A stretch of 64,000 nucleotides of DNA from Okamejei kenojei (Eukaryota): positions 20,584,001 through 20,648,000 of the forward strand of contig CM069133.1 in NCBI GenBank assembly GCA_035221665.1, in the 5' to 3' direction. Within the stretch, counting starts at the first letter, position 1, and the number at the start of each line of letters is the position of its first letter. Below are positions 451 through 63,802 of the stretch, in pieces. The position numbers were made by a program, and so were the translations under genes. The notes below the pieces were generated by a model. It saw nothing but the letters and a program-made list of their open reading frames with translations, had not been told where the DNA came from and ran no database searches.

Positions 451-899
451 CTATAACAACATTTAAAAGACATTTGGACAGGTACATGGATAGGAAAGGT
501 TTACGGGGGTACCAGCCAAAAGTATGCAGGTGGGACATCATGGACAAGTTGGCTCAAAGGGCCTATTTCCATGCTGTATGACTCTGAGAATATGACTATA
601 GATGCTGAAAATCTGAAATCAAAACAGAAAATATTCAGCAGGTCAGGCCACATGTGTGGTGTAAGACACAGAGGGTTTTTGAAAGGGTCCCAATCTGAAA
701 CGTCACCGATCCATGTTCTCCAGATATGTCGGTTGAACGGCTGACACACTCCAGCACTTTGTGTCTTTTTTTTTTAAAGCAGCATCTGCAGTTCCTTCTT
801 TCTATGTGAAACATTAACTCTTCCCAAAAGATTCAGCCTGATCTGCTGAATATTGGCGGTATTTTTCTGTTTTGCTCCATTATGCAGCATCAGGGTATC

Positions 900-1760
900 A
901 CAGTTTGAGTTTAGTTTATTGTCCCGTGTGTACAGTGAAGAGCTTTTGTTTTGCGTGCTAACCATTCAGAAAGACAATACATGATTACAATGGAGCCGTT
1001 CGTAGTACATAAATACATGATAAAGGGAGTCATGTGAATAACGTTTAGTGCAATAAAAAGCCAGTAAAGTCTGATCAAAGATAGTCCAAGGGTCTCCAAT
1101 AAAGTAGATAGCAGTTCAGGACTGCTGAACAGTTGCCTGGGAACAACTGGGAAGAAACTGTCCCTAAATCTGGAGGTGTGCGTTTTCGCACTTCTATACC
1201 TTTTGCCCGATGGGAGAAGGAGTTGCCGGGGTGTGACTCATCCTTGAATATGCTGCTGGCCTTGCCGAGGCAGCGTGAGGTATAAATGGAGTCAATGGAA
1301 GGGAAGATAGACCGAAAACTTTGGTCTTATCAGGACAGGCAGCATCTCTGGAGGGAAGGGTTGGGTGACGTTTCAGGTCGCGAGCCTTCTCCAATGGAAG
1401 GTAGGTTGGTTTGTGTGATGTTCTGGGCTGCGTCCACAATTCACTGTCATTGCTTGTGGTCTTGGATGGAGCTGTTCCCAAAACCATGCTGCGATGCATC
1501 CCGATAAAAATGCTTTCCACGGCGCGTCTGTCGAAGTTGGTGAGAGTTGTTTGGGGGACATGTCGAGTTTACGAAGCCTTCTAAGGAAGGAGAGGCGTTG
1601 GTGTGCCTCCTTGGTCGTTGTTTCGATGTGGGTGGCCCAGGAGAAGTTGTTGGTGATGTTTACTCTTCGGAATTTGAGGCTGTCAACCATCCCTACGTCG
1701 GCGCCGGCATTGCAAACCGGCGCATGTGTACCACTTTGCTTCCGGAGGTCGAACACAGTG
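900..1760 (-). mobile_element. Rex1/Babar-clade LINE, 3' fragment, interrupted by a hammerhead module at ~1305-1392
   Basis: Minus ORF contains VNITNNFSWATHIETTTKEAHQRLSFLRRLRK and SGCIAAWF (post-RT region typical of Rex1/Babar); 3' end ACAATAAACTAAACTCAAAC on minus. Confidence 0.8.
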
Positions 1761-2704
1761 CGGTGACTGCGGTGGCCATTTAGTAACCCAGCAGTTCCAA
1801 TCTCACAACCGCAAGCTGACAAAATTCATTACGTTGTCAAACTGGCAATGATGGATTAATGCTTCATTCTATAAAAGAGTTTAGAGCTGTGATTACTTTT
1901 TGCTGCCAGTAATCCACGGACATAGATCATAGGTAAAATAAAGATAGGCACAATACATGCATTATGATAGCAAAATATAGAGCACACACGATGCTGTGGG
2001 GTGATTATTCCCACAGATGATACATTTGCTAGTACATTTGCAATCAATTTTCAGCAACATTTCCTGCTAGTCAAATGTAATGAAATTAACTTATTTTAAT
2101 CATGTGTCATCATTTATTCATTCAATGAACTATATTTCATGCGTGTTACATTTAATTACATTTTAATCAAGGCTATCAACATGCTTTTATAAATGAAACA
2201 TATCGTGCACATAAAACACTGCATTATATTTTAATTAGCAGCCTTAACATGCAATTCCGAATGCAACATTTATCTTCCTGTTATTTTATTGCATGCTGCT
2301 AAATGAAAAAACAGATAGTCCCATAATGTGTGAGAGTCTAATTAAAACACTGAGAAATAGAGGAGGCATAATGTTAGGAAGCCTGATTTAATATCGGGCC
2401 TCCTACAAAGACAGTGGATAGAATCAGAAAGTCACAGAGCAGAGAGAAGCAGTGAGCCATGGTCTCTATGATGAACAAATTGAAGCTATATAAGAAATTC
2501 CCCATTTCTGTCCCCGGCCTCGGGACATATTATTTCACTAATTCATATTCTCATCTCAGATGTCTTCTAAATGTAATTAAGATTTCTGCCTCCAGTACCG
2601 TTTCTTGCTGTGAATCCCATATCCCCACTATACGTCAGCTAAAATTATTTTTGTGCAACATTCCCCTAAACCTCACTTAATTATGTCTCCATCCCTGATC
2701 TTCA

Positions 2705-2972
2705 AACCCAGGATCGATCCCGACCAAGGGTGCTGTCTGCAAGGAGTTTTCACGTTGTGCCCATGACTGTGTGGGTTTCCCCCGGGTGCTTTGGTTTCTT
2801 CCCACATTCCAAAGACGTGCAGGTATGTAGGTCAATTGGCTTTTGTAAATTGCGCCTCGTGTGCAGAATGCGAAATTGGGATAACATGGAATTAGGGTAC
2901 GGGAGATCGATGGTCGGCATGGACTGGTGGGCTGAAGGGCCTGTTTCCACGCTGTATCTCTATACTTTAAAA
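2705..2972 (+). mobile_element. V-SINE (HE1-like), 5' truncated
   Basis: V-domain GGGTTTCCCCCGGGTGCTTTGGTTTCTTCCCACATTCCAAAGAC plus CR1-derived tail GGGCTGAAGGGCCTGTTTCC. Confidence 0.85.
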
Positions 2973-3259
2973 CTTCTTGCTCACTCACACTGGCCTCTTG
3001 TGAGTTTGTACATCATACTTACATCTTCCCTTGGTGTTCTTTGCTTCAAAAAAACATATTTACCAATCTAGCAATCTCCCCTCAAATAAAAATATTTACC
3101 AATCTAGCAATCACCCCTCCCATTTCATTTCATTTTATGTTGAGTTGAGTTTGGTTGAGTTCAGTTTATTGTCTTTTGTTGCGTGCTAACCAGCCAGCGG
3201 GAAGACCATACATGACTACCATCTAGTCATCCACGGTGTAAAGATGCATAATAAAGATA

Positions 3260-4420
3260 CAATAAGCCAGTTCAGTATTCCGACTGCGCATGCACAGGTC
3301 ATGGATCGTTCGGGATAAACACTTTCAGCGGCCGTGCCGCTGCATGGGTGCAGACCTGCGTCTTGTCCCTGACCACCCGCCACAGGGCAGTCCCCGTCCC
3401 CTCCCGAATGTCCCGAGGGCCGGCGGGAGCCGGATGGGAGCGGAGGAGCGCGGGGGGTGGGGGGGGGGGGGGAGGGCGCCGGCTTCAGCTGGGCTCTGCC
3501 TGTCCTGCCGGAGCGGTGGCCCAGGACCGCAGGCGGTGCGGAAAAGAAGCATCAACTCCAGCTCAACCCCGCCCGTCCCACCGACTGGACAAGCAGAGTC
3601 GAGCTGGGACCGGCACCTTCCCTCCTCGCTGACTGCCGTCCTGGACCTCTGGATAGAAGACCCTCCTTCAGACTTCCTACATCATTAGACTTTTGCGCCA
3701 TGGTTGGGATGGATGGGAGCGGGGATTTCCACGGGCGCAAGGAACAAATGACCTAAAGTTTGCGTTGAGTGAACTGTTCTTAACATCCTCGCCGAACACT
3801 GGCGTTTTGTGAGAGTGGCTGGATTCCAGCTTCAGCTCAGCCTTCAGTCGGTCACATTATCCGGACAGGCGACGGGGCATCGGCGATGGTCTGGAATCCT
3901 AGTCGGCCGCCGTCGAGCAGCGGGGTCAAGGAGGCAGCGGCCGACCCGGGGAATAGACGAGTCGGTTCTTCCAGCGGCGAGCGGAGAGGCACCAGCTACC
4001 GCGGGCTCGATCCCGGGATCCAACCACTCTCACAAAGCGGCGGGGTAGACGAGGACGGTAAGAACACTCGGTTCATTCAACGTCGTTGGCCATTTGTTCC
4101 TTGCGCCCGCAGAAATCTCCAGCGTGGTCGAGACGAGGGGGTTGTGAAGTTGCATTCTCTCGATTGAAGACATTTTCTCGACTCTCCTAGAAGCAACGAG
4201 CCATGGCTTTACCAGTGGTTGTCTGTCTAACTGAAACCTCTCTCCCCCACATCTCACCGTCTCGCTCCCTGTCTCCCGCACGCATCTGCCCCCTCTCTCT
4301 CGCTGTTACACCCCGCTCACCCCCGCTACCAGGCACCCCGTCCACTTTTTTTATTGTCGAATAACCTTTGCCAAATCCCATGATTCCTTGCGTTTTCAGG
4401 AATACCGAACTGGCTTATTG
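3260..4420. mobile_element. Unclassified non-autonomous TIR element, GC-rich interior
   Basis: 22-bp TIR with one mismatch: CAATAAGCCAGTTCAGTATTCC (3260-3281) / GGAATACCGAACTGGCTTATTG (4399-4420); internal ~105-bp inverted repeat. Confidence 0.75.
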
Positions 4421-4430
4421 GCCACTCCAA

Positions 4431-4820: not shown

Positions 4821-4849
4821 ATAAAGGGAATAACATGAACAACACATTG

Positions 4850-5634: not shown

Positions 5635-5635
<1 letters not shown>

Positions 5636-6024: not shown

Positions 6025-6325
6025 GTTTTAGTTTTTAGTTTTAGTTTTAGTTGATACAGCGCGGAAACAGGCGCTACAGCCCACTGGGTCCGCGCCGAGC
6101 CGCATATTGACGCTATCCTACACACAGTCGGGACAAATCTTACATTTACCAAGCCAATTAACAAACCTTTGGAATGTGGGAGGAAACCGGAGATCTTGGA
6201 AAAAACCCACACGGGGCGCAGGGAGAACATACAAACTCCGTACAGACAGCGCCCGTAGTCGGGATTGAACCCGGGTCTCTGGCGCTGCAAGCGCTGTAAG
6301 GCAGCAACTCTCCCGCTGCGCCAGC
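6025..6325 (-). mobile_element. V-SINE (HE1-like)
   Basis: tRNA-like head on minus (TGGCGCAGCGG, GGTTCAATCCC), V-domain, (CTAAAA)n tail. Confidence 0.9.
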
Positions 6326-13334: not shown

Positions 13335-13637
13335 TTAGGCTTTTTAGACCTTACGGAGACAGGCCCCTTGGCCCAGCGAGCCCGCGCCGATCACCCCGTA
13401 CACTAACACTATCCTACAAACTAGGGACCATTTACAATCTTTACCGAAGCAAATAAACCTGCAAACCTGTACGTATTTGGTAAAGTGGGAGGAAGCCGGA
13501 GCACCCAGAGAAAACCCACGCAGGTCACGGGGGAAAATGTACAAACTCCGCACAGACAGCACCCACAGTCAGGATCAAACCAGGGTGTCTGGCGCTGTAA
13601 GGCAGCAACTCTACCAGTGCAACACTGTGCTGCCCCT
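13335..13637 (-). mobile_element. V-SINE
   Basis: tRNA-like head, V-domain and tail on minus. Confidence 0.85.
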
Positions 13638-13892: not shown

Positions 13893-14975
13893 GCATAGAA
13901 AAATAGACATGGAAAATAGTGGAGGCCATTCGGCCCTTCGAGCCAGCACTGCCATTCAATATGATCATGGCTGATCATCTACAATCAGTACCCCGTTCCT
14001 GCTTTTTCCCCATATCCCTTGATTCCGTTTGCCCGAAGAGCTAAATCTAACTCTCTCTTGAAAACACCCAGTGAATCGGCCCCCACTGACTTCTGTGTAA
14101 CAGAGAATTCCACAGATTCACAACTCTCTGGGTGAAAACATTTTTTTTCATCTCAGTCCTAAGTGGCCTACCCCTTATTCTTAAACTGTGACCCCTGCTT
14201 CTGGACACCCCAAACATGGGGAACATTTTTCCTGCAGCTAGCCTGTCCAATCTCTTAAGAATTTTATATGTTTCTATAAGATATCCTCTCATCCTTCTAA
14301 ATTCCAGTGGGTACAAGCGCAGTCGACCCATTTGTTCCTCATATGTCACTCCCGCCATCACGGGAATTAACCTAGTGCATCTTTCGCCGCACTCCCTCAA
14401 TAGCAAGAAAGTCCTTCCTCAAATTAGGAGACCAAAACTGCACACGATACTACAGGTGTGGTCTCACCAAGGTCCTGTACAACTGCAGTAGGACCTCCTT
14501 GCTCCTATTCTAAAATCCTCTCGCAATGAAGGCCAAACATGCAATTAGCTTTGGTAGACAAAAATGTCTACCAAAGAAACTCAGCGGGTGAGGCAGCATC
14601 TATGGAGCAAAGGAAATAGGCGACGTTTCGGGTCGAAACCCTTCATTAGCTTTCTTCACTGCCTGCTGTACCTGCATGCTCACTTTCAATGACTGATGTA
14701 CAAGCACACCCAGGTCTCGTTGCACCTCCCCTTTTTCCTAATCTGACAACATTCAGATAATAATCTGCCGTCTTGGTCTTGTTCTTGTCACCTTCTTGTT
14801 TTTGTCACCAAAGTGGATAACCTCACATTTATCCACATTATACTGCATCTGCCATGCATCTGCCCACTCACCCAACCTACCCAAGTCACCCTGCATTCTC
14901 ATGGCATCCTCATCGTGGCTCACACTGCCCCCCCAGCTTTGTGCCATCCAAAAACCTGGAGATGTCACATTTACT
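13893..14975 (-). mobile_element. CR1-clade LINE 3' portion
   Basis: MQGDLGRLGEWADAWQMQYNVDKCEVIHFG and LEFRRMRGYLIETYKILK...QRVVNLWNSL; carries a TSD-flanked insert at 14553-14644. Confidence 0.9.
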
Positions 14976-16548: not shown

Positions 16549-16576
16549 GACGTTTCGGATCGAGACCCTTCTTCAG
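16549..16576 (-). ncRNA. Minimal hammerhead ribozyme motif in a PLE 3' fragment (~16490-16800)
   Basis: Minus strand CTGAAGA A GGGT CTCG ATCC GAAAC GTC. Confidence 0.65.
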
Positions 16577-18644: not shown

Positions 18645-20045
18645 TAGACTTTAGAGATAGAAATGTAGAAACATGGAAAATAGGTGCAGGAGTAGGTCAT
18701 GGCTGATCATCCAACTCAGTATCCCGTACCTGCCTTCTCTCCATACCCCCTGATTCCCTTAGCCACAAGGGCCACATCTAACTCCCTCTTAAATATAGCC
18801 AATGAACAGGCCTCAACTACCTTCCGTGGCAGAGAATTCCAGAGATTCACCACTCTCTGTGTGAAAAATGTTTTTCTCATCTCGGTCCTAAAAGACTTCC
18901 CCCTTATCCCGAGACTGTGACCCCTTGTTCTGGACTTCCCCAACCTCAGGAATAATCTTCCTGCATCTAGCCTGTCCAACCCCTTAAGAACTTTGTAAGT
19001 TTCTATCAGCTCCTCCCTCAATCTTCTAAATTCTAGCGAGTACAAGCCGAGACTTTCTTCATATGAAAGTCCTGACATCCCAGGAATCAGTCCAGTGAAC
19101 CTTCTCTGTACTCCCTCGATGGCAAGTTACAGTGTGAAAACAGGCTGTTCGGCCCTTTGGCCCTCCGAGCTCATGCCGACCAGCGCTCAGGCTGTACACT
19201 AGCACGATCTTACACACTGGAGACAAATTCCAATTTACAAACAAGCCTGTACGTCTTTGGAGTGTGGGAGGAAAGCAGAGCATCCAGAGAAAACCAATGT
19301 GGTCATAGGGAGAACCTGCAAACTCTGTACAGGCAGCACCCGTAGTCATCAACAGGTCGATGGTGGAAAGGGTCAAGATCTTCAAATTCCTGGGCGTGCA
19401 TATTTCCGAAGATCTCTCCTGGTCCCACAACACTCATAAAGAAAGCACATCAGCGCCTCTATTTCCTGAGAAGATTACGGAGAGTCGGTATGTCAAGGAG
19501 GAGAGTGCATGCTGACCGGTTGCATCGTGGCTTGGTTCGGCAACCTGAGCGTCCAGGAGCAGAAAAGGCTGCAAAAAGTCGTAAACACTGCACAGTCCAT
19601 CATCGACTCTGACCTCCCTACCATCGAGGGGATCTATCACAGTCACTGCCTCAAAAAGGCTAGCAGCATCATCAAGGACCCACACCATCCTGGCCACACA
19701 CTCATCTCTCCGCTGCCATGGGTAGAAGGTACAGGAGCCTGAAATCTGCAACATCCAGGTTCAGGAACAGCTACTTCCCCACAGCCATCAGGCTATTAAA
19801 CACAACTTCAAATAAACTGTGAACTACAACAACCTATTGCGCTTTATCTGTTTACTGATGTGTGTATATATATATATATTCTATGGTATATAGACACACT
19901 TATCTGATCTGTATTTATGAGTACAATATGCTGTTGTGCTGCAGCAATGCAAGAATTTCATTGTCCTATCTGGGACACATGACAATAAACTCTCTTGACT
20001 TGACTTGAACCCTAGTCTCTGGTGCTCTAAGGCAGCAACTCACCC
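18645..20045. mobile_element. Nested cluster: minus V-SINE split by CR1 (~18665-19125, minus) and Rex1/Babar (~19350-20005, plus)
   Basis: CR1 LGLYSLEFRRLREELIETYK; Rex LTGCIVAWFGNLSVQEQKRLQKVVNTAQSII...CLKKASSIIKDPHHPGH; SINE pieces at ~19127-19350 and ~20006-20045. Confidence 0.85.
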
Positions 20046-20594: not shown

Positions 20595-20622
20595 CTGAAG
20601 AAGGGTCTTGACCCGAAACGTC
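20595..20622 (+). ncRNA. Minimal hammerhead ribozyme motif, intact core
   Basis: CTGAAGA A GGGT CTTG ACCC GAAAC GTC. Confidence 0.7.
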
Positions 20623-25897: not shown

Positions 25898-26180
25898 CTA
25901 AGATGCCCGAAAGCCTTTGGCCCACCGGGTCCGTGCTGACCAGCCATCCCTGCACACTAGCACTATCTCACACGCACAAGGGAAAATTTACAATTATACC
26001 AAGCCAAATAACCTACAAACCTCTACATGTTTGGAGTGTGGGAGGAAATCGGAACTCCCAGAGAAAACCTACGCAGGTCACAGGGAGAACGTACAAACTC
26101 CTTACAGACAGCACCCGTCGTCAGGATCGAACCCGGGTCTCTGTAAGGCAACAATTCTACCGCTGAACCACCAGGCAGCC
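25898..26180 (-). mobile_element. V-SINE
   Basis: V-domain and B-box-like GGTTCGATCC on minus. Confidence 0.85.
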
Positions 26181-27993: not shown

Positions 27994-28021
27994 AACGTTT
28001 CGGGTCGAAACCCTTCTTCAG
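27994..28021 (-). ncRNA. Minimal hammerhead motif, UUCG-loop/GUU variant, within a cluster of modules (~27590-28025)
   Basis: Minus strand CTGAAGA A GGGT TTCG ACCC GAAAC GTT. Confidence 0.7.
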
Positions 28022-29189
28022 ATGTTATAGATGTGTATTTGTCCCTGCTATACTGACTTGTTGCTTTGTTTCAATTGGAGTACACTGGTATATTCTATTG
28101 TAGAACATAATCCATGTGTAGGAATGTATTGTTTGCATCCATGTCTATCGACAACAAAACTCTATGTACTGTTATTACTTGTTGGCAATAGCGTCTTTCA
28201 AACGGCATTCAGCTGTTTTGGACTATCTCTGCAATATTATTTTGAGACATCAGCACATCTTGAAACTGTCAAGCAATTACATGGGAGCATCAGGATCAGG
28301 AGCTACATTTATCACCGTACATGCTATCAATATCCAACTTTCACTAATTCGTCAACAAGCAGAACAGATTAATAAATATCTCAAGAATGCAAGAAGCGTG
28401 AATGGGCCTTTCAGTTGTTCCACCATTCGATTAGACCGTGGCTTACCGTTCACCTCACCTCCTCTTACCACCACCAACCCCACAACCTTAGATGCCCCTA
28501 ATATCCGGAGGATCCGGCTTGGGGCACCGCCATGAGGGAGGGGGAGGAACAATGGATAATGGAGGATCTGGTGCGGGGGAGACCACCATGTGGGAGGGGG
28601 AGGGGGGGTGAAAAAAGGGGGACCTGGCACGGGTGTACTTTGTAACTTTGTCAGCACCTTAATGGGCGACCATTTGCACACCTTGGGTAAGCAAGCAAAG
28701 AATTCCACCATGACTTGTCACATGTGACGATAAAGTATTCATTAATTCATTCATTCACATGCAACAATCTTTGTCTTGAATATGCTCAGTGCCAGAACAT
28801 CCACAGTCTTCTCAGAAACAGATTTCCGAAGAATCAAGAGTCAAAGAATCTTTTATTTGTCATATGCATCAGATATGAATCAGAGCAATAAAATTCCCCC
28901 CCCGAAACGTCACCCATTCCTTCTCTCCAGAGATGCTTCGTGTCCCGCTGAGTTACTCCAACTTTCTGTGTCTTATCTTTGGTTTAAACCAGCATCTGCA
29001 GTTCCTTTCTGCACAATGAAATTCGTACTTGCTGCAGCTTTCACAGGCACATGAGTCACAATGACTACAATCGCAGTTTAACAACCGCAAAAATAAATAT
29101 CCAATAAATTATCCATGATTCCAAGTAAATGACCATGACAGTGCAAAACCAAAGTATGGAGAGCAAACAAAGGAGGTCAAAGAACCTGA

Positions 29190-39520: not shown

Positions 39521-42500
39521 AAGCACAAACAACAGGCCCTCCGTCAGCACTCGTGTCCCACCAATGCCCCCAGTTAAGCTAGTCCCATACACCCTTATTT
39601 GGCCGCATATCCCGCAAAACCTTTCATACCCTTGTATATCGTCCAAGTGTCTATTGGCTGGTATAGTACCTGCCTCCTCTGGCCAGCTTGTCTTCTTATA
39701 CCCGCCTCACCCTGGAGAATGAAACAATTGCCCATGAGGTTCCTAATTAAAATCTGTGCACTCTCCATACCTTTGGAACTATGTTCTCTTGGTTATTGAT
39801 GTACTGTTCACCCCAATATATCTCCCCTCATGGTTTTAGAACACCTGTGATATCATTCTGCGAGAGAAATATGTTTTCCAGTAAGTCAGCAAAACTATCC
39901 ATTGTATTCAGTGGCCTAACCATATGTATTACACGAAACAAAAAACAAACTGCAGAGATACGGGTTTATACCAAGATAGACACAAGGTGCTGGAGTAATT
40001 CAATGGGTCAGGCAGCAACTCTGGGAAGAACATGGATAGGACAACCAAAAACTTCAACCTATCCCGTGTTCACCAGAGAGACTGCCTGACTTGATAAGTT
40101 ACTGCAGCATTTTGTGTCTATAACTATGCATGACAGCATGTCAGAGAGTAAAATGCAAGAATGCTGGTTTCTTCAAACCAAAGGCAAGACAACCAAATAA
40201 CTGGAGTAACTCAGCGGTACAGGGCATCTCTGGAGAACTGGATTAGGACGATGTTTGTCTATGGTGGAGATCCTTCTTCAGACTTGAAGAGGTAGGGGGG
40301 ACTAACGGAAACGAGAGATATAGACGGTTACTTAGGACAATTCTGCAATGGAATGATAATATGCAGATAAGCAACGAATAATCATGGAAAATAGGGAGCC
40401 CACAATGGTCCATTGGGCTGCTGGGAATAGTGGTGATAATCCTAGTTTAATTACAGGACACTGGAGCTACCATTCCAGATACAGTAAATACTTGCATTGG
40501 TCTCTGCACTCAAGTGATATCTGGAAGCTAACCTTTCCTTTCTCACACTGATTTAGTTTGGTTTGGTTTAGTGATATAATCTAAGCACATTAAAGCTACC
40601 CTAAAACACACAAGGGTCAATTTTTACCAGGATTACAAGGGAAAAAGAGTTAATAACCAAATAAAATACATATCTTTAGAAGTATGTTATCGATCGAAAA
40701 ACAAATGAGGACCGCATACAAAATATAGTAAGCAGTATGTTTAGTGAGGAACCAGCAAGCAGATTGGCTTTAATGGTTTAAAATAAACAGGTTGGGAACA
40801 AATAATGAAGAGCTAGAAAAATTTCTAAGATTTGAAACAAAAATTAGATACAGCGCGGAAACTCCATAAAATGAAGCATCTTTGTTATGTTTTATTGGGG
40901 TGAGTCTCGACAGCCACTTGTTGTTTGAGCTCGTTTATAACTAAAAATGAGTCGAAAAGTGGATATCTCCAACACACATTGGAGATGAATCGGAAGACAT
41001 AAATTATAGTGTGCTAATTATATCCTCCTTATATGCTAATCCGTATGCGACCAGCCGAACGATACTCCCAGAATTATAACGCACTAGCTGGTAATATTAC
41101 GAGAGCCTAATTTTACGTAATGATTCCAAAGAGAGACGAATATGCATACAACAAACTATCCCAATTTCATAGCCTGTAGAGTCATCGGATGGCACCCTAT
41201 AAACAACTTACATAGATAACAAGGGGTTAGAGCACTGAACAATTACAAAGCTTGACACCAACGAAAAACAGGTTTAAGCCAATGCCAGAAAACACTCGCA
41301 GCCAGCCAATTAACTCAAACCTGTATCGTTGGAGTGTTGGGAGGCAACTGAAGATCTCGGAGAAAACCCACGCAGTCACGGGGAGAACGTTACAAACTCC
41401 GTACAGACAGCGACCGTAGTGGGGGGAATCGAAAACTCAGGTCTACCGCAAGCGCTCTGTAAAAGGCAGCAACTCTATACCGCAGTGTTGTTACTGAGTG
41501 CCGCCACTGATGGAGAGAGGAACTCGCAATACTGCACTCAAGTCCCTATTAACACCTCCATAACTTCAATGCAAGTAAACCAATGACACTTACAGGCCTG
41601 TCAATTGAAGAAGGTGTTTTTAAAAATTTTAATCTTTAACTGGTTAACTACTCGCCTGAGATGAGGGTCAATTGCATTGGGAGGAACAGTGGGATTGCTT
41701 GGCATGTCTTAGCATCACTCTAGCTTACATTTATAGGAAGCGATTTGAATTGCCTTCCACAATATCCATGCCATATGAAGATCAAATCCCGTTAATAGAT
41801 CATCCCTGTGGGCTCTGTTTAATAATGAGCACTGCGTAATCTTGCAGAAAGAAAACAAACAAAATAATTCTGTGCAGGGGAGAAACTGAAGATGCTGGTT
41901 TACATCGAAGATAGACACAAGAAAAGCTGGATTAAGGTCAGCGGGTTCAGGCAGCACATCATAGGAGAAAAGGCAAAAAAGATGACGTTCCGGGTCGAGA
42001 CCATTTCTTCAGATGTTAGTAGTCATGGGAAAGGGAGAAACTAGAGATATAGCAGCAAGGTATAAAACAAATCATGAGCCAGACACCGATGACAAGGAAA
42101 GGTTTGGAGCCCACCAATGGTCCATTTGTTGGCAGTGGTAGAGGTGATAATGAATGGATTATGAACAGTGAAACTGCAGGAAGACAGCAGAGAAACTTAG
42201 GGGTGAGGGGAGGGACGGGGAGATACCGGGAAAGCCAAGGGGTACTTTGAAACTAGAGGAAATCATATATTCATACCACTGGGTTTTGCAAGCTGCCCCT
42301 AGTGAAAAATTATATGCAGTTGGTTCCTCCAATTTTGGTGTGGAATTCTTAAGGGTTTAGGTTATAGGTTTGAGTTACGGATTGTTTGCTTATTTTGACT
42401 TCATTCAAAGGTTTGCATTTTCCACCCTCTGCTGTGTTCGAACAGGCAAAATCACATGAAATACAACAACAACCATTGTAAAGTGGTGGGCCGCAACTGT

Positions 42501-43703: not shown

Positions 43704-46326
43704 CATCTTCACTAAGGAGGACACAAACAATCTTCCTGGATATAGTAGTGGCCAGAGGATCTGGGGTGAACAGAGGAACTGTGGAAATCCACATTAGGCT
43801 GAGGATTGGAAATTGGGTAGTTCGGGTTAGTCTGATGGGACTGAAGGCTGATAAATACCCAGGGCCTGATTGGTCTGACCCAGTTGGTACTTAAGGAAGA
43901 GGCTCTAGAAATCGTGGATGCATTGTTTTGATTAATTTTCCAATGTTCTATTGACTCAGGATCAGTTTCCTGTGGATTGGAGGGCAGCTAATGTTTATCC
44001 CACTTTTTAAGGAAAGCGCATGGGAGATGAGGGGAAAACACGGAATTATAGACCAGTTAGCCTGACATCGGTGGTGGGGAAGATGCTTGGAGTCAATTAT
44101 ATAAGATGAATAGCCCACACATTCTGGATCAGCAGTAAACAAGATCGGTCCGAGTCAGCATGGAGTTACGAAGGGGAAATCTATGCTTGAACTAATCTTC
44201 TGGAATTTTTTGAAAGATGTAACTAGGAAAATGGACAATGGAGAGATAAGAGCAGCCAGTGGATGTTAGTGTACCTGGCACTTTTCAGAAAGCATTTTGA
44301 TAAAAGGGTCCCACATAGGCAGATTAGTGGGCCAAAATTAGGGCACCAGGTATTGGGGGTGGTTTTATCGAGTGGCTGACGATGGATTAGAAAATTGGAT
44401 GGTTGACAGACAGGAGGAAACAAAAGAGTAGAGATTAATCAGGAATCAGATTCAGAATCACACTTTATTCACTCAAGTATTTTTGCGACATACGAGGGAA
44501 TTTTCATTGGCCAGGTCAAGTCAATACAAATTAAAAGCATTAGATCACTCAAAACATATTTGATATAACATGAACATCCCAACCACAGTGACTCCTACAC
44601 ATTCCGTCACTGTGATGGGAAAGGCGGAAATAAAGTTCCAAGGCCTTCTTTTCCTTTTTGTTCTTCCTCGGTCATGTGACCTCAAGCCCTCCGTTTTTGA
44701 ACAGGACGATCTTTGACTCCCGTAGCCGGCTGGCGTTTGGGCCCTCCGCGTTGAGGCGATCAGCTCCTGCATCGGGGGGATGCTCAGCTCCTGCCCGCGC
44801 CTGAGGCCGATCGAATCTCCCGTCGGGGCTTGGACGAACCTTCCGCGATGTTGTAGCTCCCGAACTCGGCCTCCCCCGGAGACTGCGAGCCCTTGATGGA
44901 GTGATTCCGAGCGTGGTCGCGGTGGGGAGCGATCCCAGGTAAGTCCACGCCCCACGTGAGGGCTCACGGGACAGTACCGAGGCAGGCTTCCAGCTCCATC
45001 GATGGTATGGCCGCAGAGCCCGGGGAAATGCGGATCGGAAAATTAATCACATCTCCAGGGATGGTAAGAGTTTGGGAAAAAAAGTTTTCCCCGCGATTCC
45101 CTCCACCATCCCCCCACATTATAAGCAGAACCGAGAACCATTTAAAACAAACTTTTAGAGCATTAAAAATAAGAAATGAAAAAATGAACAGAACTGGCCG
45201 GCAGAGGCACTGTCCATCGCCCACAGGCGCCACCTTGTTGGTCTGGGTCCCTTTCATGAATGGCAGGCAGTGACTGGTGGGTACCGCAAAGGCTCAGTTT
45301 GCTGGGACCCCGCAACCTATTTACAATATCACATCAATGATTTGGAATGACAGGGATTCAAAGTAAACATTAGCAAATTTGCAGATGACACAAAGCTGGG
45401 TGGCAGTGTGAACTGTGTGAGGAAGTGATGCTATGCGAATGACAGGGTGACTTGGACAGGTTGGGGGATGTGGGCAGGTGCTTGGAAGATTAAGGTTTAA
45501 TGTGGATAAATATGAGGTTATTCCACTTTGGTAGCAAAAAACCCAGGAAGGGCAGATTACTATCTGGTGTCACGTGGGGAGAAGAAGGGGAAGTACACGG
45601 GATCTGGGGGTCCATGTTCATCAGTCTATGAAAGTAAGCATGCAGGTACAGCAGGCAGTGAAGAAAGCGAATGGCATGTTAGCCTTTATAAAACGAGGAG
45701 TCGAGTATAGGAGCAAAGAGGTCCTTCTGCAGTTGTACAGGGCCCTAGTGAGACCACATCTGGAGTATTGTGCACAGTTTTGGTCCCCTAATTTGAGGAA
45801 GGACATTCTTGCTATTGAGGGAGTGCAGCGTAGGTTCACAAGGTTAATTCCCGGGATGGCGGGACTATCATATGCTGAGAGAATGGAGCAGCTGGGCTTG
45901 TACACCCTGGAGTTTAGAAGGATGAGAGGGGATCTTATTGAAACATATAAGATTGTTAAGGGTTTGGACACGCTGGAGGCAGGAAACATGTTCCCGATGT
46001 TGGGGGAGTCCAGAACCAGGGGCCACAGTTTCAGAAGGGGTAAGCCATCTAGAACAGAGACGAGGAAACACTTTTTCTCACAGAGAGTTGTGAGTGTGGT
46101 ATTCTCTGCCTCAGAGGGCAGTGGAGGTTGGTTCTCTGGATACTTTCAAGAGAGAGCTAGATAGGGCTCTTAAAAATAGCAGAGTCAGGGAATATGGGGA
46201 GAAGGCAGGAACGGGGTACTGATTGGGGATGATCAGCCATGATCACATTGAATGGCGGTGCTGGCTCGAAGGGCCGAATGGCCTACTCCTGCACCTATTG
46301 TCTATTGTGTATCGACTATTGTCTAT
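43704..46326 (+). mobile_element. CR1-clade LINE covering the RT domain to the 3' tail, interrupted at ~44440-45245
   Basis: KYPGPD, NYRPVSLTSVVGK, QHG, KFADDTK (~45375) and the clean ORF 45574-46164 (LYRALVRPHLEYCAQFWSP...RRMRGDLIETYK); (TCTATTG)n tail. Confidence 0.92.
44440..45245 (-). mobile_element. Non-coding retro-insertion inside CR1 (probable non-autonomous Rex/L2-type element)
   Basis: Minus 5' end CAAGGTGGCGCC, GC-rich body, AATAAA plus (CTGATT/CTGAAT)n tail; CR1 sequence GATTAA|GGGTCCCTTTC rejoins across it. Confidence 0.6.
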
Positions 46327-46986: not shown

Positions 46987-48812
46987 AGCATGGTGGCGCA
47001 GCAGTAGTGTTGCTCCCTTACAGCGCCAGAGACCTGGGTTCGATTCTGACTCTGGGTGCTGTCTGTACGGAGTTTGCACGTACTCCCCATGGGCCGTGTG
47101 GGTTTCTCTGGGTGCTATGGTTTCATCTACACAGTTTGGGTTTTTTCGTCTAGGTTAATTGGCTTCTGTAAATTAGACAATAGATAATTGGCAATAGACA
47201 AAAGGTGCAGGAGTAGGCCATTCGGCCCTTCGAGCCAGCACCGCCATTCAATGTGATCATGGCTGATCATTCCCCAATCTATACCCCGTTCTGCCTCCTC
47301 CCCATATCACCTGACTCCGCTATTTTTAAGAGCCCTATCTAGCTCTCTCTTGAAAGCATCCAGAGAACCTGCCTCCACCGCCCTCTGAGACAGAGAATTC
47401 CACAGACTCACCACTCTGTGAGAAAAAGTCAAGTCAAGTCACATTTATTTCTATAGCACATTTAAAAAACAACTCTCGTTGACCAAAGTGCTTTACATTT
47501 GTTATAAGAGTAGTATACACAAGCAGGCTACATACATATATACAAATAGCCCTCGCTCAGAGGACGTCAGGAAAGGCTTGGGAGAACAGATACGTTTTTA
47601 GACTAGACTTAAAGGAGTCGATGGAGGGGGCAGTTCTGATGGGGAGGGGGATGCTGTTCCACAGTCTAGGAGCTGCGACCGCAAAGGCGTGGTCGCCCCT
47701 GAGCTTATGCCTAGACCGCGGGACATTCAGCAACCCCAAGTCGGCCGATCTGAGGGACCTGGAGGTGGTGTAGTGGGTGAGAAGACTTTTAATGTAGGTG
47801 GGTGCAAGCCCATTGAGGGCTTTGTAGACAGAGAGGAGGGTCTTGAAATTAATTCGGAACCGCACAGGGAGCCAGTGGAGGGAGGCCAGGATCGGGGTGA
47901 TGTGGTCCCTTTTTCGGGTGCCCGTCAGGAGTCTCGCTGCGGCGTTTTGGACCAGTTGCAGGCGGGACAGGGAAGATTGGCTGATGCCAGTGTAAAGGGA
48001 GTCGCAGTAATCTAGGCGGGAGGAGATAAACGTGTGGATGATCTTTTCAAGGTCATCAAACTGGAGGAATTGTTTTATTTTAGTTATCATCCGAAGCTGG
48101 AAGAAGCTAGCTTTAACCATGGCATTGACTTGTTTGTCAAACTTCAGTGCTGAGTCAAATATCACGCCAAGGTTTTTGACGTGAGGTTTGAGTAGTGGGG
48201 TAAGGCTTCCAAGGCTGCCTGCTATCATTTTGATTGTGTCCGAGGGGCCGAGAATGATGACCTCAGACTTACTCTTGTTTAGTTGGAAGGAAAATTGTTT
48301 CCTCATCTCCGTTCTAAATGGCCTACCCCTTATTCTTAAACTGTGGCCCCTGGTTCTGGACTCCCTCAACACCGGGAACATGTTTCCTGCCTCTAGTGTG
48401 TCCAAGCTCTTAACAATCTTATATGTTTCAATGAGATCCCCTCTCATCCTTCCAAACTCCAGAGTGTACAAGCCCAGCTGCTCCATTCTCTCAGCATATG
48501 ACAGTCCCGCCATCCCGGGAATTAACCTTATAAACCTACGCTGCACTCCCTCAATAGCAAGAATGTCCTTCCTCAAATTAGGGGACCAAAACTGCACGCA
48601 ATACTCCAGGTGTGGTCTCACTAGGGCTCTGTACAACTGCAGAAGGACCTCTTTGCTCCTATCTTCGATTCCTCTTGTTATAAAGGCCAACATGCCATTC
48701 GCTTTCTTCACTGCCTGCTGTACCTGAGAGTGGAGGATAGAACTAGTGTATGGATTCTTGGTCGGTGTGGACTTGGTGGCCCAAAGGGCTGTATCTCTAA
48801 AAACTAAAACTA
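46987..48812. mobile_element. Triple nest: V-SINE (+) containing CR1 (~47175-48725, minus) containing L2
   Basis: SINE head 46987-47173 and tail ~48730-48812; CR1 peptide QVQQAVKKANGMLAFITRG...RTRGHSLRIRG. Confidence 0.9.
47426..48296 (-). mobile_element. L2-clade LINE 3' fragment with uninterrupted reading frame
   Basis: QLNKSKSEV...VKNLGVIFDS...FISSRLDYCDSL...LQLVQNAAARLL...HITPILASLHWLP...APRLWNSIP...FKSSLKTYLF; (TTGAC)n tail. Confidence 0.92.
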
Positions 48813-49254
48813 ATGTGGAGTTCTGTGCTAAGTTTTTGGTCTCCTCACTGAGGGAGGATGTTTGCGCAATGGAGGGAATGCAATGGAGAAGTATTCGACT
48901 AATTCCTGGGATGGTTGGACCGCGTGGAGAGATTGAGTTATTTGGTGACATGAGGAACTGTGGTTTCTGGAATCTTGAGCAGAATACAAAGAGCTAGAGG
49001 AAACCTACAGTGCATCAAGCAAAAAAAAAAAGCACCTGTGGAAAGAATGCTCAAATGATGCTTTGTGTTGTGAACACTCCTATCACACGCATCGGGCCAG
49101 CAGTAAATCGCAGAGGGTGGGAGCCAGTGACGGGAGGGTCACTTACAGACACTCCCTCTGAATGAGAAGCGTGCCCGAACAATAATGGGCAGCTGCCATT
49201 TACTCCACGGATACTGCCTGACCTCTGAGTTTATTTTAGTTTAGTTTGGAACAT

Positions 49255-50062
49255 ACGTGTAAAAACCGCAAGAAATGCTACATTTGTCTGCAACCCGCAA
49301 GAAATGCACGCTCGCTTGTACCTTCACCTCCCACCCTCCACTCCTTTCAGGGACCCAAGCTGTCCTTTCCAGGTCCCGACAGAGGTTCACTGCACCTCCT
49401 CCAACCTCATCTACTGCATCCCGACTGCTGGCTCCAGATGCCAGAGATGATCTATATCGGTGAGACAAGCGGAGGCTTGGCAGATCGTTTCGCCGAACAC
49501 CCTCCGCCTCGGTTCCACAAAAAAAACCAACCTGACCTCCCGGGTCGCCTCAGCAACATTCAACTCCCCCTCCCATATCCGTATCCGGCCTCTGGTCCTG
49601 GGTCCTCCATCCATGGGGCCAGTGAGTGAGCAACACCGCATAGTTGGAGGACTACAGCACCTCATATTACGCTTGGGGAGTCTGCATCCTTTGGGCTTGA
49701 ACATTGAATTTTCTCAATTCTGTTTCACCCATGCTGTCTCCTCCCTTTTTGCCCACCTCTCCCTCAGCCTCGGGCCCTGGCATTCCCTTCTCATCTCTTA
49801 TCTCCTCCCCAACATTAGTTGCAACTAGCTTCTCATTTTCACACCACAAACAGCTTACAATGGCTTGTTCCCTTTATCATCGACACTTTTTTGCATATCT
49901 TTCATTCATTGTTCTTTATCTCTCCACATCACCGTCTATATCTCTCGTTTCCCTGATCCCTGACCAGTCTGAAGAAGGGTCTCGACCCGAAACGTCGCCT
50001 ATCTCCTTCGCTCCTTAGATGCTGCTGCACCCGCTGAGTTTCTCCAGCTTTTTGTGTAACCC
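49255..50062 (+). mobile_element. Penelope-like element, second 5'-truncated copy
   Basis: Colinear with ~33020-33773 (MIYIGET...DRFAEH); same terminal module. Confidence 0.85.
49969..49996 (+). ncRNA. Minimal hammerhead ribozyme motif, intact core
   Basis: Identical 28-mer to 33677-33704. Confidence 0.75.
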
Positions 50063-50069: not shown

Positions 50070-50335
50070 AAAAACAAGCTCTTTGGCCCACTGAGTCCGT
50101 GCCGACCAGCGTTCCCTGTGCACTAGCACTACCCTAAGCACACTAGAAAAATGTTACCTAGGCAAATGAACCTACAAACGTGTACGTCTTGGAGTGTGGG
50201 AGGAAACCGAAGCTCGAGGAGAAAAGCCACAGGGTCACGGAGAGGACATGCAAACCCCGTCCAGACAGCACCCGTAGTCAGGATTGAACCCGGGTCTCTG
50301 GCACTAGAGGCGGCAGCTCTATACAGTGGACACAG
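50070..50335 (-). mobile_element. V-SINE
   Basis: V-domain and GGTTCAATCC on minus. Confidence 0.8.
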
Positions 50336-52590: not shown

Positions 52591-53338
52591 TCCTTTCACC
52601 GTTTTGGGAAGTGTAGGTTATGTGGGGGTTATACAGCCGCGGTACAGAATATAGCGCGCTGGTAATTTTCGGAATAAACCCGCTCGGGATGTATGCTGAC
52701 ATGATGTCGCGCCTATCTGTTTGATTTATGCCTTTTCAATTTGCCGATGCTTGACAGCCTATAAATCCAGTTATTATAAAAACACAGGGGGCCTGTATTT
52801 TGATGAGGTGAGAGGAAAAGGATAGAAGTAAAACACAAAGTGCGTAGGAAGCAACCTGCAGAAATTGGTTACATCAAAGATAGATCAACTAAGTGCTGGG
52901 TAACTCAGCAGGTCAGGGCAGCATTGTAGAGGATGGCTGGACAACAGTTTTTGGGCAGGAGCCTTCTAGACCGTCGATCCAAAACGTCACGTATTCCTGT
53001 TCCGCGAGATGCTGTATGATCTGCTGAGTTACTCCAGGTTTTTGCATCGATCTTCGGTTTCAACCAGGATTTGTAGTTCCTTCCTACATAAGTGATGGAG
53101 TAACTCAGCCTGAATAACGGAGCAGTGTCCTGACCAGAAATGTCGCTTGTCCATTCCTTCCGCAGATGCTGCCTTATCCCCTGTGTTGCTCCAGCATTCT
53201 GTGTTTTATTCAGTATCTGCAGATACACACAAAAGGCTGGAGTAACTCAACGAGCCAGGCAGCATCTCTGGAGAGAAAGAATGGGTAATGTTTTGAGTCG
53301 GGACCGTTCTTCGGGACCAGTGTCAATACTTCATCAGT

Positions 53339-53366
53339 CTGAAGAAGGGTCTCAACCCGAAACGTC
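53339..53366 (+). ncRNA. Minimal hammerhead motif, intact core, in a fold-back pair of modules
   Basis: CTGAAGA A GGGT CTCA ACCC GAAAC GTC. Confidence 0.7.
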
Positions 53367-55799
53367 ACCCATTCCTTCTCTCCAGAGATGCCGCCTGTTC
53401 CGCTGAGTTACGGCAGCACTTTGCGTCTATCTTCAGTTTAATCCAGCATCTGCAGTTCCTTCTTACACATTCCAGTATCAACAGTTCTTTGTGCCCCAAG
53501 GCAGAGATAGAAGCTGATTTTTTAAATCAAAAATATTTTGAAACTTTACGCTGCACCTTTTAATGAATTAACGTCTTTGAACCTCATTATGTGCTTGTTA
53601 TAACAATATTAAATCATGCCCAGATATGAACCTTCACAGCATCTGAGCTGCTTATGATGAAAAAAAAATAGATAGAATGCTCATTACATGTTTTGTACTT
53701 TGTGGGGACTAATTTAATGGTTAGCTCATGGAATTTTATTTTTGGAAAATATACCATTGCAAATGCTGCAGGTTCTTGGACTTTCACCAGATGAACACTG
53801 AAAACAAACCCACAAGAACTTGCCAAAAACAATTGGATTCATGTCAAACTACAAAAAACAGAGATGCAATGTATTTTCCAATTATCATAGCAATCTTTTG
53901 GAGTTAAAACAGCTTTTGCATTAGCATAGGTTCGCTGATTAGCTTTTAAGTAAAGGAATCAATATTAATTCCAGTTTTAAATATAATTTGCTGAGATTTT
54001 ATTTATAGGTTCCAAAGCTTCGAATGCAGAACCTTGATCACTGGTGTTAAAATGCTTTGTAAATTGGTTCCTGTCGACATCAGCTAGTTTTGAATACGAG
54101 TTGAAAGATAGCTAATGCCAATAGGAACCAATTTACAAACATTTTGTGGGAAAAAAAACAGTGCAAATATTAATGCAAAGCCTAATTTCAGGTAACTGAG
54201 GTATAAATCTGATAAACCGCGATGCTAAACAATCCATTTCTGACTGCACCCGTTTACTTTGACCGACCAGACTGAACTTCCCTTGAATTGCACACGAGGA
54301 CACACAATTGGAAGCGTGTTGTGTTGATATTTAATTGGGTTTGATAAGCTCCAAAAATAAGGCCTCTGCTGCTAGAAACTACCATTACATGAAGGGCATT
54401 GGTTTTGTCTTCTGCATTATTATAGGTTTTTTGTGTGAGTCACGTTGTGAGGCATGTGTGTGGTACACACACCACACGTTATATTTATACACATATATAA
54501 TATATTTATTTTTTTTTTTTTTATATTTTTTTTCTCATTATTTATATTATTTACAGTTTGTTTACTATTCTAGTGCTGCTGCTGCAAGTAAGAATGCCAT
54601 CGTCCTATCTGGGACATGTGGACAATAAAAACACCTTGACTCTCTTTGAAGTTCCTAAAATTCCCAATAATATGGTGTTTGCTATGGTGCTCTGAAGTTT
54701 CGAAAGTTACTAAGATGGTATTAACTATTTCAATTAATTATCCGTAAAACATCTTTCTCTTTCTTTTGTCCCCATGTTTTCAACTACAGAATTGGGTCAC
54801 GTTCCTTTAAAATTCTCCCCGTGGGCCGCCATTTCGCTACGGTGTGTGGAATTTAGGATAAAAGGCATGTTTTTTTTCTCTTTTAAAATCAGAAACATTT
54901 GTGATTTGTTTATCCTTTGGATATCCCCTTCTGTTCCAATGTACTGGAAAAATCTCAGCCCAGCCTCCCTCCTAGTTCCTTCTTTTATTATAGTTGGAAT
55001 TATTCCACTGGGATCTGCTCGCTAAGTAGCTTCAGTTTCCCAGATGCCGAATAACGAAACTTCCTGGTAATCTCTGATTTCTGTTAAGCGCTTGCGGGTG
55101 CCCTTGAGAACTAAATAACTCTCAGGGCTGGAACACTGCTTTGTTTTTCTCTCTGTGTTGGCTACTGATGAAAAGAATGATCATAAATGATAAGTGTTGG
55201 TACCACTTATTTTCGTAATGATCGTACCCGTCCTTAAATATTCTAAATGAGTGGGAACAAAGAGAAAATGCTGCCTCCTCACCAACTTCTTTTTCACATT
55301 TATTTTTCCTCTCCCCACTGATTGCTTTTTTAATACCTTTCCTGTTACTTTTATTCTGTACAATCCCTTTCCCCCGCTCTCGTAAAATCTTTTTAAGTTT
55401 GCCTTTCATGACCCACTTTAAATTTTTATATCATTAGCATCTGGGGTATCGTTTTTGAATTTTCCTCCCTCCTGTTACTCTTAGCGAAGAATGTTTTTCC
55501 AAATCTTAGGCACTGTACATAACAATGCCAAAGTACAATTTTGTGTTTTGTGGCCAAGTTTCTCCTTCTTACAAACCTGGTGATATCTATTGATGTTCTT
55601 CAGTACCATATGTTTTTTGATAACTTTTCATAGTAATTAGAGTCATGCACCATGGAAATGAGCTTTTGGCAACGGTGTATGGTCTTCTCATTAAGTTCCC
55701 CTCTTAACTACTCTCAATTACCTTAATCTCAATACCTTAGTAATTCAAGTGCTTCATACGTCTAAGTGTTTTTTTTAACGTGTGTGAAACCTTCGACCT

Positions 55800-56120: not shown

Positions 56121-56996
56121 ACCTTAAAGATTAAGGACTTAAGGGCGCCCTTAAGATTCTTCAGGATCTTGTGGGGTGATTGTGTATATCACAGCATTAT
56201 TAGTCTCTCTAAAAATGCAAAACTAACTGTTTTCAGGAATAAAATTATAGCCGACAATTTATCTTCCCATCTCATGAACTCATTAATATTGTTACGTTGA
56301 TGTAGATGACCTTCTCCACTGTCAACAACAGCAACCATTTTGTGTTTTATCATTTGCAAGAATTATTACTTTTGCCTATAAATGCAAACGACTTGAAATT
56401 TTTTATCCATGTTAAGTCTTTCTGTTTTCAACAAAAAGCTTTTGGCATTGTGCCTCGGTACATACGGAAACGGAACATCCAAAACATCCTACGCATTAAA
56501 GATAGACGCAAAATGCTGGAGTAACTCAAAACAGGTCAGGCAGCATCCCGAGAAAAATAAATAAGGTAACGTTTGGGGTCGACGAGGCCCTTCTTCAGAC
56601 TTCACCTATTCCTTTTCTCCAGAGGACGAGCTGCCTGAACCCGATGGAGTTAATCCCCTGCCATTTTTGTGTCTTATTCAGTGTAAAAACCATGCATCTG
56701 CAGTTCTTCCTACACATCCTCAACATTTTTTTTTTCGATATATTATAACAGCACCAAGGGTCCCAGCACCCAACATTATGATACTCCACTGGTCAACAGG
56801 CTAACGAGAATCAAAATCCATTCTATCCACCCAACGTCAATTTCAGATCAAATTTGCTCCAAATGGGTCTTTAGAATACCAGTGCACAGTTTATTTTGGA
56901 TCAATTCTCCCTGTCATAGGCTTTTACTGAGGTAATTGCTGCCTACATTAACTGCACGTGTGCGCGCAGTGGTAAGAGTTTGCTGCTAATCTCTAA

Positions 56997-59195: not shown

Positions 59196-59200
59196 GAGGT

Positions 59201-59228
59201 GACGTTTCGGGTCGAGACCCTTCTTCAG
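59201..59228 (-). ncRNA. Minimal hammerhead motif, intact core, almost without flanking module
   Basis: Minus strand CTGAAGA A GGGT CTCG ACCC GAAAC GTC. Confidence 0.7.
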
Positions 59229-60719: not shown

Positions 60720-60869
60720 CAGTTATGGAAACTAAAGTCTGAAAAACCATATTTTTTTTTTAATTGATCTTGGTATTTCTGCTTGGCAAAATATCAAACT
60801 AAAGGACCATCCTTCCTTAATTGTTGAAATTCTGCATTCTACGTGTGTTCTTTAAAAACGCAAGCTTCA

Positions 60870-62599: not shown

Positions 62600-63190
62600 A
62601 CTTTGAAGATACAGCAATGAAACAAGCCCTTCAGACCATACAAATTTCCATGCTGGCCAGATGCTCAGGCATATCCTACACGCTACCGGACAAATTTTTT
62701 TACAACTCATTCCCAAAGCCAATGAAGTAAACGAAACCTTGTGCGATTTGTGGGTTTAAAAGTTATGGGAGGAAAACTGAACACAACCTGAGAAAACCCA
62801 CATGGTGACGGGGAGAATGATCAAACCCTGTACAGACAGCACCCGTAGTCAGGATGGAACCCGGGTCTCCGGCGCTGTAAGGCAGCAACTCTACCACTGC
62901 GCCACCGTGCCATTATCAGGCAACTGAACGGTCCTTTCATCAGCTGGAATGCATTCCTGACCTCCCATCGACCTCATTGGAAACCTTTGAACTGTTTCAT
63001 AATTGGACTTTATGGGACTTCACTGTCCTATCTCGCGCTAAATATTGCAGTCTTGACCCTTTATCTGAGCACTGTGGATAGATTGATTGTATTCACACAT
63101 GGCCGTTTCCTTCACAGCTTAGCACGCTAACAAAAGCTCTTCACTGCACCTCCATGCACATGATAATAACATACTAAACTAAACTGAACA
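62600..63190. mobile_element. V-SINE (minus, ~62600-62912) followed by a Rex 3' UTR (plus)
   Basis: Head GGCACGGTGGCGCAGTGGTAG on minus; TTATCAGGCAACTGAAC...ACTAAACTAAAC. Confidence 0.75.
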
Positions 63191-63304
63191 TTGCTGGAGA
63201 ACATAGAGAGGTAACATTTTGGATCGGGACCCTTCTTCAGACCCAAAACATCACCTATCCATGGTCTCCAGAGATGCTGACTGACCCGCACTGGTCAGCA
63301 CTGT

Positions 63305-63712
63305 GCCTGGACTCGCTGGAGTTTAGAAGGTTGAGAGGGAATCTCATTGAAACTTACAGAATAATTAGGCATAGATAGAGTGGATGTGGAAAGGATGTTT
63401 CCAATGGTGGGAGAGCCAACGACCAGAGGCCATAGCCTCAGAATTAAAGGGCGCACTTTTAGAAAGGAGGTGAGGAGGACCTTCTTTAGTCAGGAGGTAG
63501 TTAATCTGTGGAACTCATTGCCACAGAAGGCGCAAGTCGGTGGAAATTTGTAAGGCAGAGATAGACAAATTCTTGATTAGAACGAGTGTCAAGGGTTATG
63601 GGAAGAAGGCAGGAAAATGGGATTAGGAGGGAGAGATCAGCCATGATTGAATGGCGGAGTGGACTCGATGGGCCGAATGGCCTAATTCTGCTCCTGTAAC
63701 TTGTGAACTTGT
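63305..63712 (+). mobile_element. CR1 3' fragment
   Basis: CTCGCTGGAGTTTAGAAGG...CR1 3' UTR, (AACTTGTG)n tail. Confidence 0.85.
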
Positions 63713-63782
63713 GAGCCCGCTGAGTTACTCCAGCATTTTGTGCCTTTTTCTGCTTTAGTAACGGTTGCAAACCAATAGCTGC

Positions 63783-63802
63783 CTGAAGAAGGCCGAAACG
63801 TC
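63783..63802 (+). ncRNA. Ultra-short hammerhead-like motif
   Basis: CTGAAGA A GGCC GAAAC GTC: core intact, helix II reduced to GGCC. Confidence 0.45.

Follow-up and report, generated by a model that had tools for sequence, protein, structure and literature searches.

In a 64,000-nucleotide stretch of the Okamejei kenojei genome (contig CM069133.1, positions 20,584,001 to 20,648,000; hereafter the window, with coordinates counted from its first base), short motifs carrying the core of a minimal hammerhead ribozyme are scattered on both strands. The motif was found to be the head of a repeat unit of 95–130 nt, the bounds of which were absent from an earlier sequence-only reading of this DNA. 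These motifs may well be the heads of decaying insertions of the pseudo-long terminal repeat (pLTR) of a Neptune-type Penelope-like element (PLE), most of the inserted molecules likely being run-off complementary DNAs (cDNAs) that were primed in the tail of the unit and copied from uncut RNA beginning at the edge of the ribozyme.

Abundance and intactness of the motif

The repeat units were searched with an iterated profile (E ≤ 0.001) and intact motifs with a structural descriptor made of the core, a helix II of at least 3 bp, a palindromic loop III and UH. Sampling of the genome (2.76 Gb) covered 60 evenly spaced 10-kb stretches (600 kb), and the descriptor was scanned over 1.064 Mb. The profile detected 63 hammerhead-tail units on both strands of the window (683–63890), and the head was covered in 44 of them. 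At least 9 of the 11 core bases were kept in 35 units and all 11 in 14, and the full descriptor was satisfied by nine family copies. The sequence-only reading had counted roughly 35 copies, which agrees with the 35 units, and the eight intact cores it had named were all located where it had put them and satisfied the descriptor. Its density of one hammerhead per 2 kb did not hold, as three quarters of the 35 are broken.

The exact pattern used in that reading occurs 6 times in the window, and 20 or 24 times when up to three or five substitutions are allowed. In the whole genome the pattern matched exactly at 77,139 places, while its reversed form, used as control, had no match; the 6 matches in 64 kb are about three times the genomic density of 1 per 36 kb. 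The evenly spaced samples yielded 269 units amounting to 4.3% of bases, supporting the suggestion that hammerhead modules are a major repeat class of this genome. The descriptor returned 57 matches in 1.064 Mb (55 of them family copies), and each of 10 shuffles returned 0–1. The same scan revealed no second hammerhead family in 1.064 Mb, and the Rfam search at E ≤ 1 matched no hammerhead family, giving only AT-repeat artefacts. A different base at position 7 was found in 7,063 cores, the first 100 of which mostly resemble variants of the same family. In addition, a nested cluster of three exact heads inside about 110 nt was noticed at G000 C1 2018389–2018543.

Copy ends and insertion structure

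The ends were mapped on 420 copies, obtained from 587 units through 442 covering the downstream anchor and 435 that were alignable, with the removal of 15 discordant ones. The 5′ ends were mapped against natural copies bearing the untranslated region (UTR), and five pyrimidine-rich edge copies were reassigned to read-through. Counted from C3, the 5′ ends heaped at −5 to −1, where 129 of the 228 copies at risk ended (0.113 per nt). The chance of a 5′ end per nucleotide was 0.026 at 0 to +7 and 0.017 at +8 to +19, and it was 0.005 around the cut site (+26 to +30; 9 of 380) as well as in the 3′UTR. The heap was present in five subfamilies and was alike in single and inverted copies. Direct repeats of at least 9 nt (9–16 nt) flanked 27 of 114 single edge copies, compared with 1.2% in permutations, and 21 of these 27 repeats were within −4 to +7 nt of the 5′ end.

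The 3′ ends formed two clusters, at +89 to +94 and at +120 to +131, which correspond to an optional tail. Upstream of the 348 headed copies we found unrelated DNA in 169, an inverted unit in 97, the 3′UTR in 74 (a count slightly off, since one "UTR" reference proved to be an inverted unit) and a tandem unit in 8, and cis dimers are therefore rarely possible. There were 100 head-to-head pairs holding 199 of the 587 units and 20 tail-to-tail pairs; one long and one short arm were combined in 74 of the 100 inverted pairs, where 49 were expected. The head was kept in 75 of 100 young copies from the genome lists, and 26 of those 75 had the exact 3′UTR junction; the totals of these lists were 46,042, 45,954 and 20,953. 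Of 30 copies that reach the open reading frame (ORF), 6 have their 5′ end at the edge and 4 have it within the unit. Loose ends at this edge were also seen in contigs from four public runs, though these contigs may be DNA.

The parent Penelope-like element

Upstream of the motif, open frames with reverse transcriptase, PADKG, a CX4CxxC linker and GIY-YIG were found at the genomic loci L021 (727 codons) and L035 (1,064 codons), with Pfam matches to RVT_1 and GIY-YIG falling just below the curated cut-offs. The parent ORF has the same sense as the motif and lies about 250 nt upstream of the hammerhead. A single ORF with reverse transcriptase and C-terminal GIY-YIG is present, and 1,497 relatives were found; the closest named proteins are from sharks and rays (64–73%), and no relative was found in viral contigs. 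In both the window copies and the genomic loci the motif sits in the pLTR and has the same orientation as the ORF. The locus L040 is a partial tandem in which the 3′UTR, hammerhead, tail and 5′UTR are followed by the next ORF, and partial tandems, an inverted 5′ copy and the optional tail are all present in the family. The ORF start is 98–100% alike in 40 copies, which suggested that the family was recently active.

PMC8557442 describes a CX2-5CxxC linker between reverse transcriptase and endonuclease as the mark of Neptune, found in Nematis too. Judged by its sequence and by that account, the parent is a canonical endonuclease-positive PLE with the Neptune/Nematis linker, and we class it as Neptune-type on the linker, met as CX4CxxC in L021, though this is common to Nematis. 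Two further features of these loci were observed. An apparent start codon in a splice-donor-like context is present at 7865–7880 of L040, about 165 nt past the core, and the genome yielded no junction splicing it to the core. A 255-codon antisense frame recurs in the endonuclease region of L021 (7133–7897, minus strand) and of other young copies, and probably arises only from the C-richness of the sense strand.

Hammerhead identity of the motif

The core CUGAnGA, GAAA and UH together with helix II is present in the nine family copies of the window and in the 55 of 1.064 Mb, and the extra base after A9, the G10.1–C11.1 pair and a palindromic helix III are all present. The core, the parent element and its relatives all support the earlier assignment to the minimal type I hammerhead of PLEs with an extra A and a palindromic helix III. 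Across six subfamilies classed on downstream columns, none of the 24 core and stem columns had a majority change, as against 10 of 32 tail columns unused for the classing (p 0.003), and the head changes between subfamilies only in loop II and at position 17. No compensatory change in helix II was found among the subfamilies of this genome, and double changes of the G15–C20 type were seen in 2 sequences among several hundred. The sequence-only reading had taken a varying loop and a holding stem as a sign of selection. This failed, because G>A changes, which break the stem, and C>T changes, which leave a G-U pair, occur at similar frequencies; transitions account for the conserved stem, and it was rejected as proof of selection within this genome. 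Overall, that reading was partly borne out: the motif and the places of its cores stood, and the density per 2 kb and the stem argument did not. It had also overlooked the parent element and the heap of 5′ ends.

Related elements were informative in this respect. Among 80 metagenome loci the same architecture was found in 27, with 31 descriptor matches against 0–2 in each shuffle; 28 of the 31 were in the sense of the ORF, and their helix II sequences were quite different. Such elements, with the core kept and helix II replaced, give good comparative support for hammerhead identity. Compensatory changes in helix II are clear across these related elements of other animals. Four of the related elements (L243, L248, L258 and L215) carry a U3–A8 core variant known from PMC4209133.

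Helix I consists of 2 bp here, a U-A or U-G followed by a constant G-C, so the earlier caveat about its length was correct; most relatives have 3–6 bp. Nearest-neighbour models without tertiary energy predicted helix I with a probability of ≤0.002 and placed the dimer fold 12–18 kcal/mol above the best co-fold. The minimal hammerheads of PLEs are known to have no activity as monomers and low activity as dimers (PMC4209133), and in the PLE Poseidon cleavage occurs only with the protein of the element, the ribozyme being dispensable for insertion in vitro (PMC11167929). In all long units, for instance at 53390–53450 of the window, a stem joins a block about 20 nt past the cut site to the tail and encloses a small hairpin. 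This stem is constant across subfamilies, shows no double-sided change, and is a candidate element for reverse transcriptase binding or priming. A pairing between the core and the tail end, seen in single folds, was rejected as it was absent from the consensus fold.

Decay of the inserted copies

All 11 core bases were kept in 124 of the 587 units. G12, which lies in a CpG, was changed in 20% of copies compared with 17% at downstream CpG sites, and when matched by base, the core G and T decay like the flanks. The sequences thus indicated that the swarm is mostly dead, its copies decaying largely neutrally and not as working ribozymes.

Origin of the 5′-end heap and alternative explanations

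A heap immediately upstream of the core is most simply explained by an RNA that starts at this point. In the explanation that we favour, the reverse transcriptase is predicted to prime inside the tail, synthesis would run to the 5′ terminus of an uncut RNA starting at the ribozyme edge, and the heap would mark that terminus. Because ends at +28 are scarce, the inserted cDNAs would come mostly from RNA continuous across the cut site, either uncut or religated. The hammerhead would be kept by selection in the source elements only, and cleavage may be possible only with the protein of the element or a partner copy. An initiator-like YYANWYY places its A at −3, and the length of a tail-primed run-off product equals the observed unit length. 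A TATA-like word was also considered as a promoter sign and set aside as weak and not general. The two 3′-end clusters and the inverted pairs fit two internal priming sites and the use of both target strands (PMC11167929), and also the structures described in PMC8557442 and PMC3846280.

Several observations weigh against this explanation. The heap is ragged, with 130 further ends at 0 to +19, and +28, the base that directly follows the cut, accounts for five ends compared with about two per neighbouring position, an excess that is weak at most. Of 64 UTR-bearing copies only 28 matched the initiator, in some cases not in register, and one subfamily has no TATA-like word near −33, a word that also recurs at other places in the UTR. 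Twenty of the 30 ORF-reaching copies read through the edge into the 3′UTR, so many templates must extend further upstream or the enzyme must jump templates, and these long copies would need longer transcripts, circles or template jumps. The genome lists point the same way as the sample but with more read-through, which in the young subfamily reached up to about 45% (20,953 versus 45,954), where the sample gave 10 of 44. The evidence from public runs consists of contigs, possibly of DNA, whose depth tracks copy number and is uninformative on expression. Finally, the core adenines are better kept than those downstream (4.3% versus 8.1% changed, base-matched), so the decay is not perfectly neutral; this excess may come from selection among source elements or from alignment in the A run.

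More tentatively, the RNA could start three bases before the core and be primed in its 5′ tail, giving a cDNA of 95–130 nt that is inserted directly or jumps to the 3′ repeat. A jump of this kind, as by retroviral strong-stop DNA, would build the partial tandems, and helix I would be only 2 bp long because the RNA starts three bases upstream of the core. If true, PLEs would have their R region in the hammerhead-tail unit, and transposition would exclude cut RNA.

The main rival to run-off at an RNA start, rather less probable in our view, keeps the same element and takes the heap as a stop or processing site, where the cDNA stalls at a protein or fold or folds back on itself, or where an endonuclease resolves the product. 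The ragged ends through helix II, the 199 of 587 units in head-to-head pairs at a near-palindromic edge and the many long copies that pass the edge are in its favour, as is the self-priming at palindromic junctions argued in PMC3846280. Such a site should however halt long and short cDNAs equally, whereas the proportion ending at the edge was 6 of 26 for long copies and 129 of 228 for all copies; the same heap is also present in single copies with abutting target duplications, and the structure predicted at the edge is weak. Two further explanations are less likely than a stop site. It is unlikely that the short units are a non-autonomous family with its own transcription, mobilised in trans like short interspersed nuclear elements (SINEs), even though fixed ends, target duplications and about a million copies (by extrapolation) would suit such a family and the older subfamily 0 is nearly devoid of 3′UTR-bearing copies (1 of 48), a point weakened as old UTRs were possibly missed. 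Copies that carry a UTR or ORF and identical diagnostic bases are found in subfamilies 1, 2, 4 and 5, inverted pairs together with an optional tail mark the autonomous element, and ARAGORN found no tRNA head.

We regard it as quite improbable that the edge is a splice acceptor, with a pyrimidine tract and YAG, and that the copies derive from spliced RNA as in Drosophila Penelope. The YAG at −4 to −2 is kept across all UTR types, and there is the Drosophila precedent of an intron that ends at helix I (PMC4209133; also PMC2377424). Against this, the target duplications abut the 5′ end and leave no room for an upstream exon. The internal body of the element was joined upstream in none of 206 edge copies, the 36 same-strand matches found upstream being 35 inverted units and one missed UTR. 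The predicted junction of 5′UTR and core had no genomic match, and no recurring GT-AG joint was seen among the public-run contig joints listed. Least probable of all is a direct role of the scattered motifs as functional ribozymes that are under selection and cut host transcripts in monomeric or dimeric form. The 77,139 or more heads that look intact and the slight excess conservation of the core adenines would be expected of such ribozymes, but a full core remains in no more than 124 of 587 units, the 20% of copies altered at G12 are in line with other CpG sites, and the folding models (helix I at ≤0.002, dimers 12–18 kcal/mol above the best co-fold) agree with the inactive monomers and weakly active dimers of PMC4209133.

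Features of the window

The intact minimal hammerhead at 33677–33704 (plus strand; C3 to H17 by the descriptor, helix II of 4 bp and helix I of 2 bp) belongs to the 3′ pLTR of a 5′-truncated element. This copy spans 32660–33809 (plus strand, start approximate) and comprises the broken end of the ORF with the Cys linker and GIY-YIG, about 250 nt of 3′UTR, the hammerhead and the tail; its GIY-YIG match (E 0.005) is under the Pfam cut-off, and it is 95–96% identical to many genomic copies. A second 5′-truncated copy at 49266–50060 (plus strand, start approximate), supported by sequence, descriptor and profile, lacks the tail, and its hammerhead at 49969–49996 is likewise preceded, in the same sense, by about 250 nt of 3′UTR and a broken GIY-YIG frame.

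The other intact motifs of the window are shorter or less complete. On the plus strand, the hammerhead at 53339–53366 (descriptor and profile) belongs to the short unit 53336–53469, which stands head to head with 53217–53314 on the minus strand, and the core at 20595–20622 (descriptor) lies in a 40-nt fragment without helix I. On the minus strand, the core at 16549–16576 (descriptor and profile) has the 3′UTR upstream and has lost helix I, and the one at 27653–27680 (descriptor) is a ninth intact core absent from the sequence-only reading. The cores at 27994–28021 and 32577–32605 (descriptor and profile) belong to the short units 27892–28022, with its 5′ end at −1, and 32509–32608, with its 5′ end at −3 and a flanking direct repeat of 9 nt. 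The last one, at 59201–59228 (descriptor and profile), is in a 35-nt fragment. The profile also resolved a head-to-head inverted pair at 27080–27297, in which the minus-strand unit 27080–27179 has no tail and the plus-strand unit 27179–27297 has one, and further head-to-head pairs at 23122–23299, 39944–40122, 52843–53090, 56493–56714 and 63189–63289. One descriptor match at 26709 (minus strand) lies outside the family.

The window also contains other repeats. Fragments at 45535–46164, 47557–48993, 14047–14418 and 18716–19126 are repeated on both strands and have no Pfam match; presumably they resemble the 3′ ends of long interspersed nuclear elements of the CR1 and L2 types. The broken end of a non-LTR retrotransposon lies at 30604–31454 (minus strand) with a weak zf-RVT match (E 0.003). 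A dispersed family of more than 110 nt (D12, D16) is found at 6168–6286, 13478–13596, 26030–26148, 50187–50305 and 62758–62876; ARAGORN detected no tRNA in it, and we take it to be SINE-like.

Comparison with known systems

The motif, the host element and the insertion structure are already described. Our literature search, with Repbase, Dfam and Lunse et al. 2017 (which may hold such motifs) outside its scope, found no paper on shark or ray hammerheads and no report of 5′ ends heaped at a ribozyme edge. What is added here is the scale (at least 77,139 exact heads, and a share of the DNA estimated at about 4% from the samples) and a statistic at the population level: the ribozyme is retained complete in the insertions, whose 5′ ends fall at its edge rather than at the cut site. 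The edge-ending insertions speak against a linear cut RNA as the in vivo template, and the heap provides a precise position for work on 5′ ends.

The minimal hammerheads in the pLTRs of PLEs (Cervera and De la Pena 2014, PMC4209133) share the same core, the extra base between 9 and 10.1, the G10.1–C11.1 pair, the palindromic 15.2–16.2, the pLTR position and the thousands of single dispersed copies. Helix II has 4 bp here compared with 7–8 in Schistosoma, and helix I has 2 bp compared with the typical 4–5 and with 2 in D. virilis. The at least 77,139 copies compare with about 9,000 in the richest vertebrate reported there, and two of its three supplementary files contain no shark or ray names. 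For Drosophila Penelope, PMC2377424 places the start site 46 nt upstream of an intron, which ends at helix I (PMC4209133); because that start precedes the intron, Penelope would differ from the present element.

The animal non-LTR retrozymes (bioRxiv 10.64898/2026.07.22.740005) are likewise non-coding hammerhead units derived from pLTRs, and one cartilaginous fish was sampled among them. They form head-to-tail tandem arrays there, whereas the present units are dispersed, single or head to head; with 8 tandem among 348 headed copies, identity with these retrozymes was rejected.

The Neptune clade (Craig et al. 2021, PMC8557442) has the same reverse transcriptase, CX2-5CxxC linker and GIY-YIG with CCHH, the same partial tandems, an inverted 5′-truncated copy and an optional tail of 30–40 bp; as a difference, the hammerhead of the present element precedes the apparent start codon by about 165 nt. 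Poseidon of Anolis carolinensis (Frangieh et al. 2024, PMC11167929) differs in belonging to another clade and in an ORF that starts inside the ribozyme, and the main text of that study does not describe genomic 5′ ends heaped at the edge of the ribozyme. Its two internal priming sites nevertheless resemble the two 3′-end clusters, its extension of both target strands the inverted pairs, and its use of uncut RNA as the main substrate the scarcity of cut-site ends in the present family.

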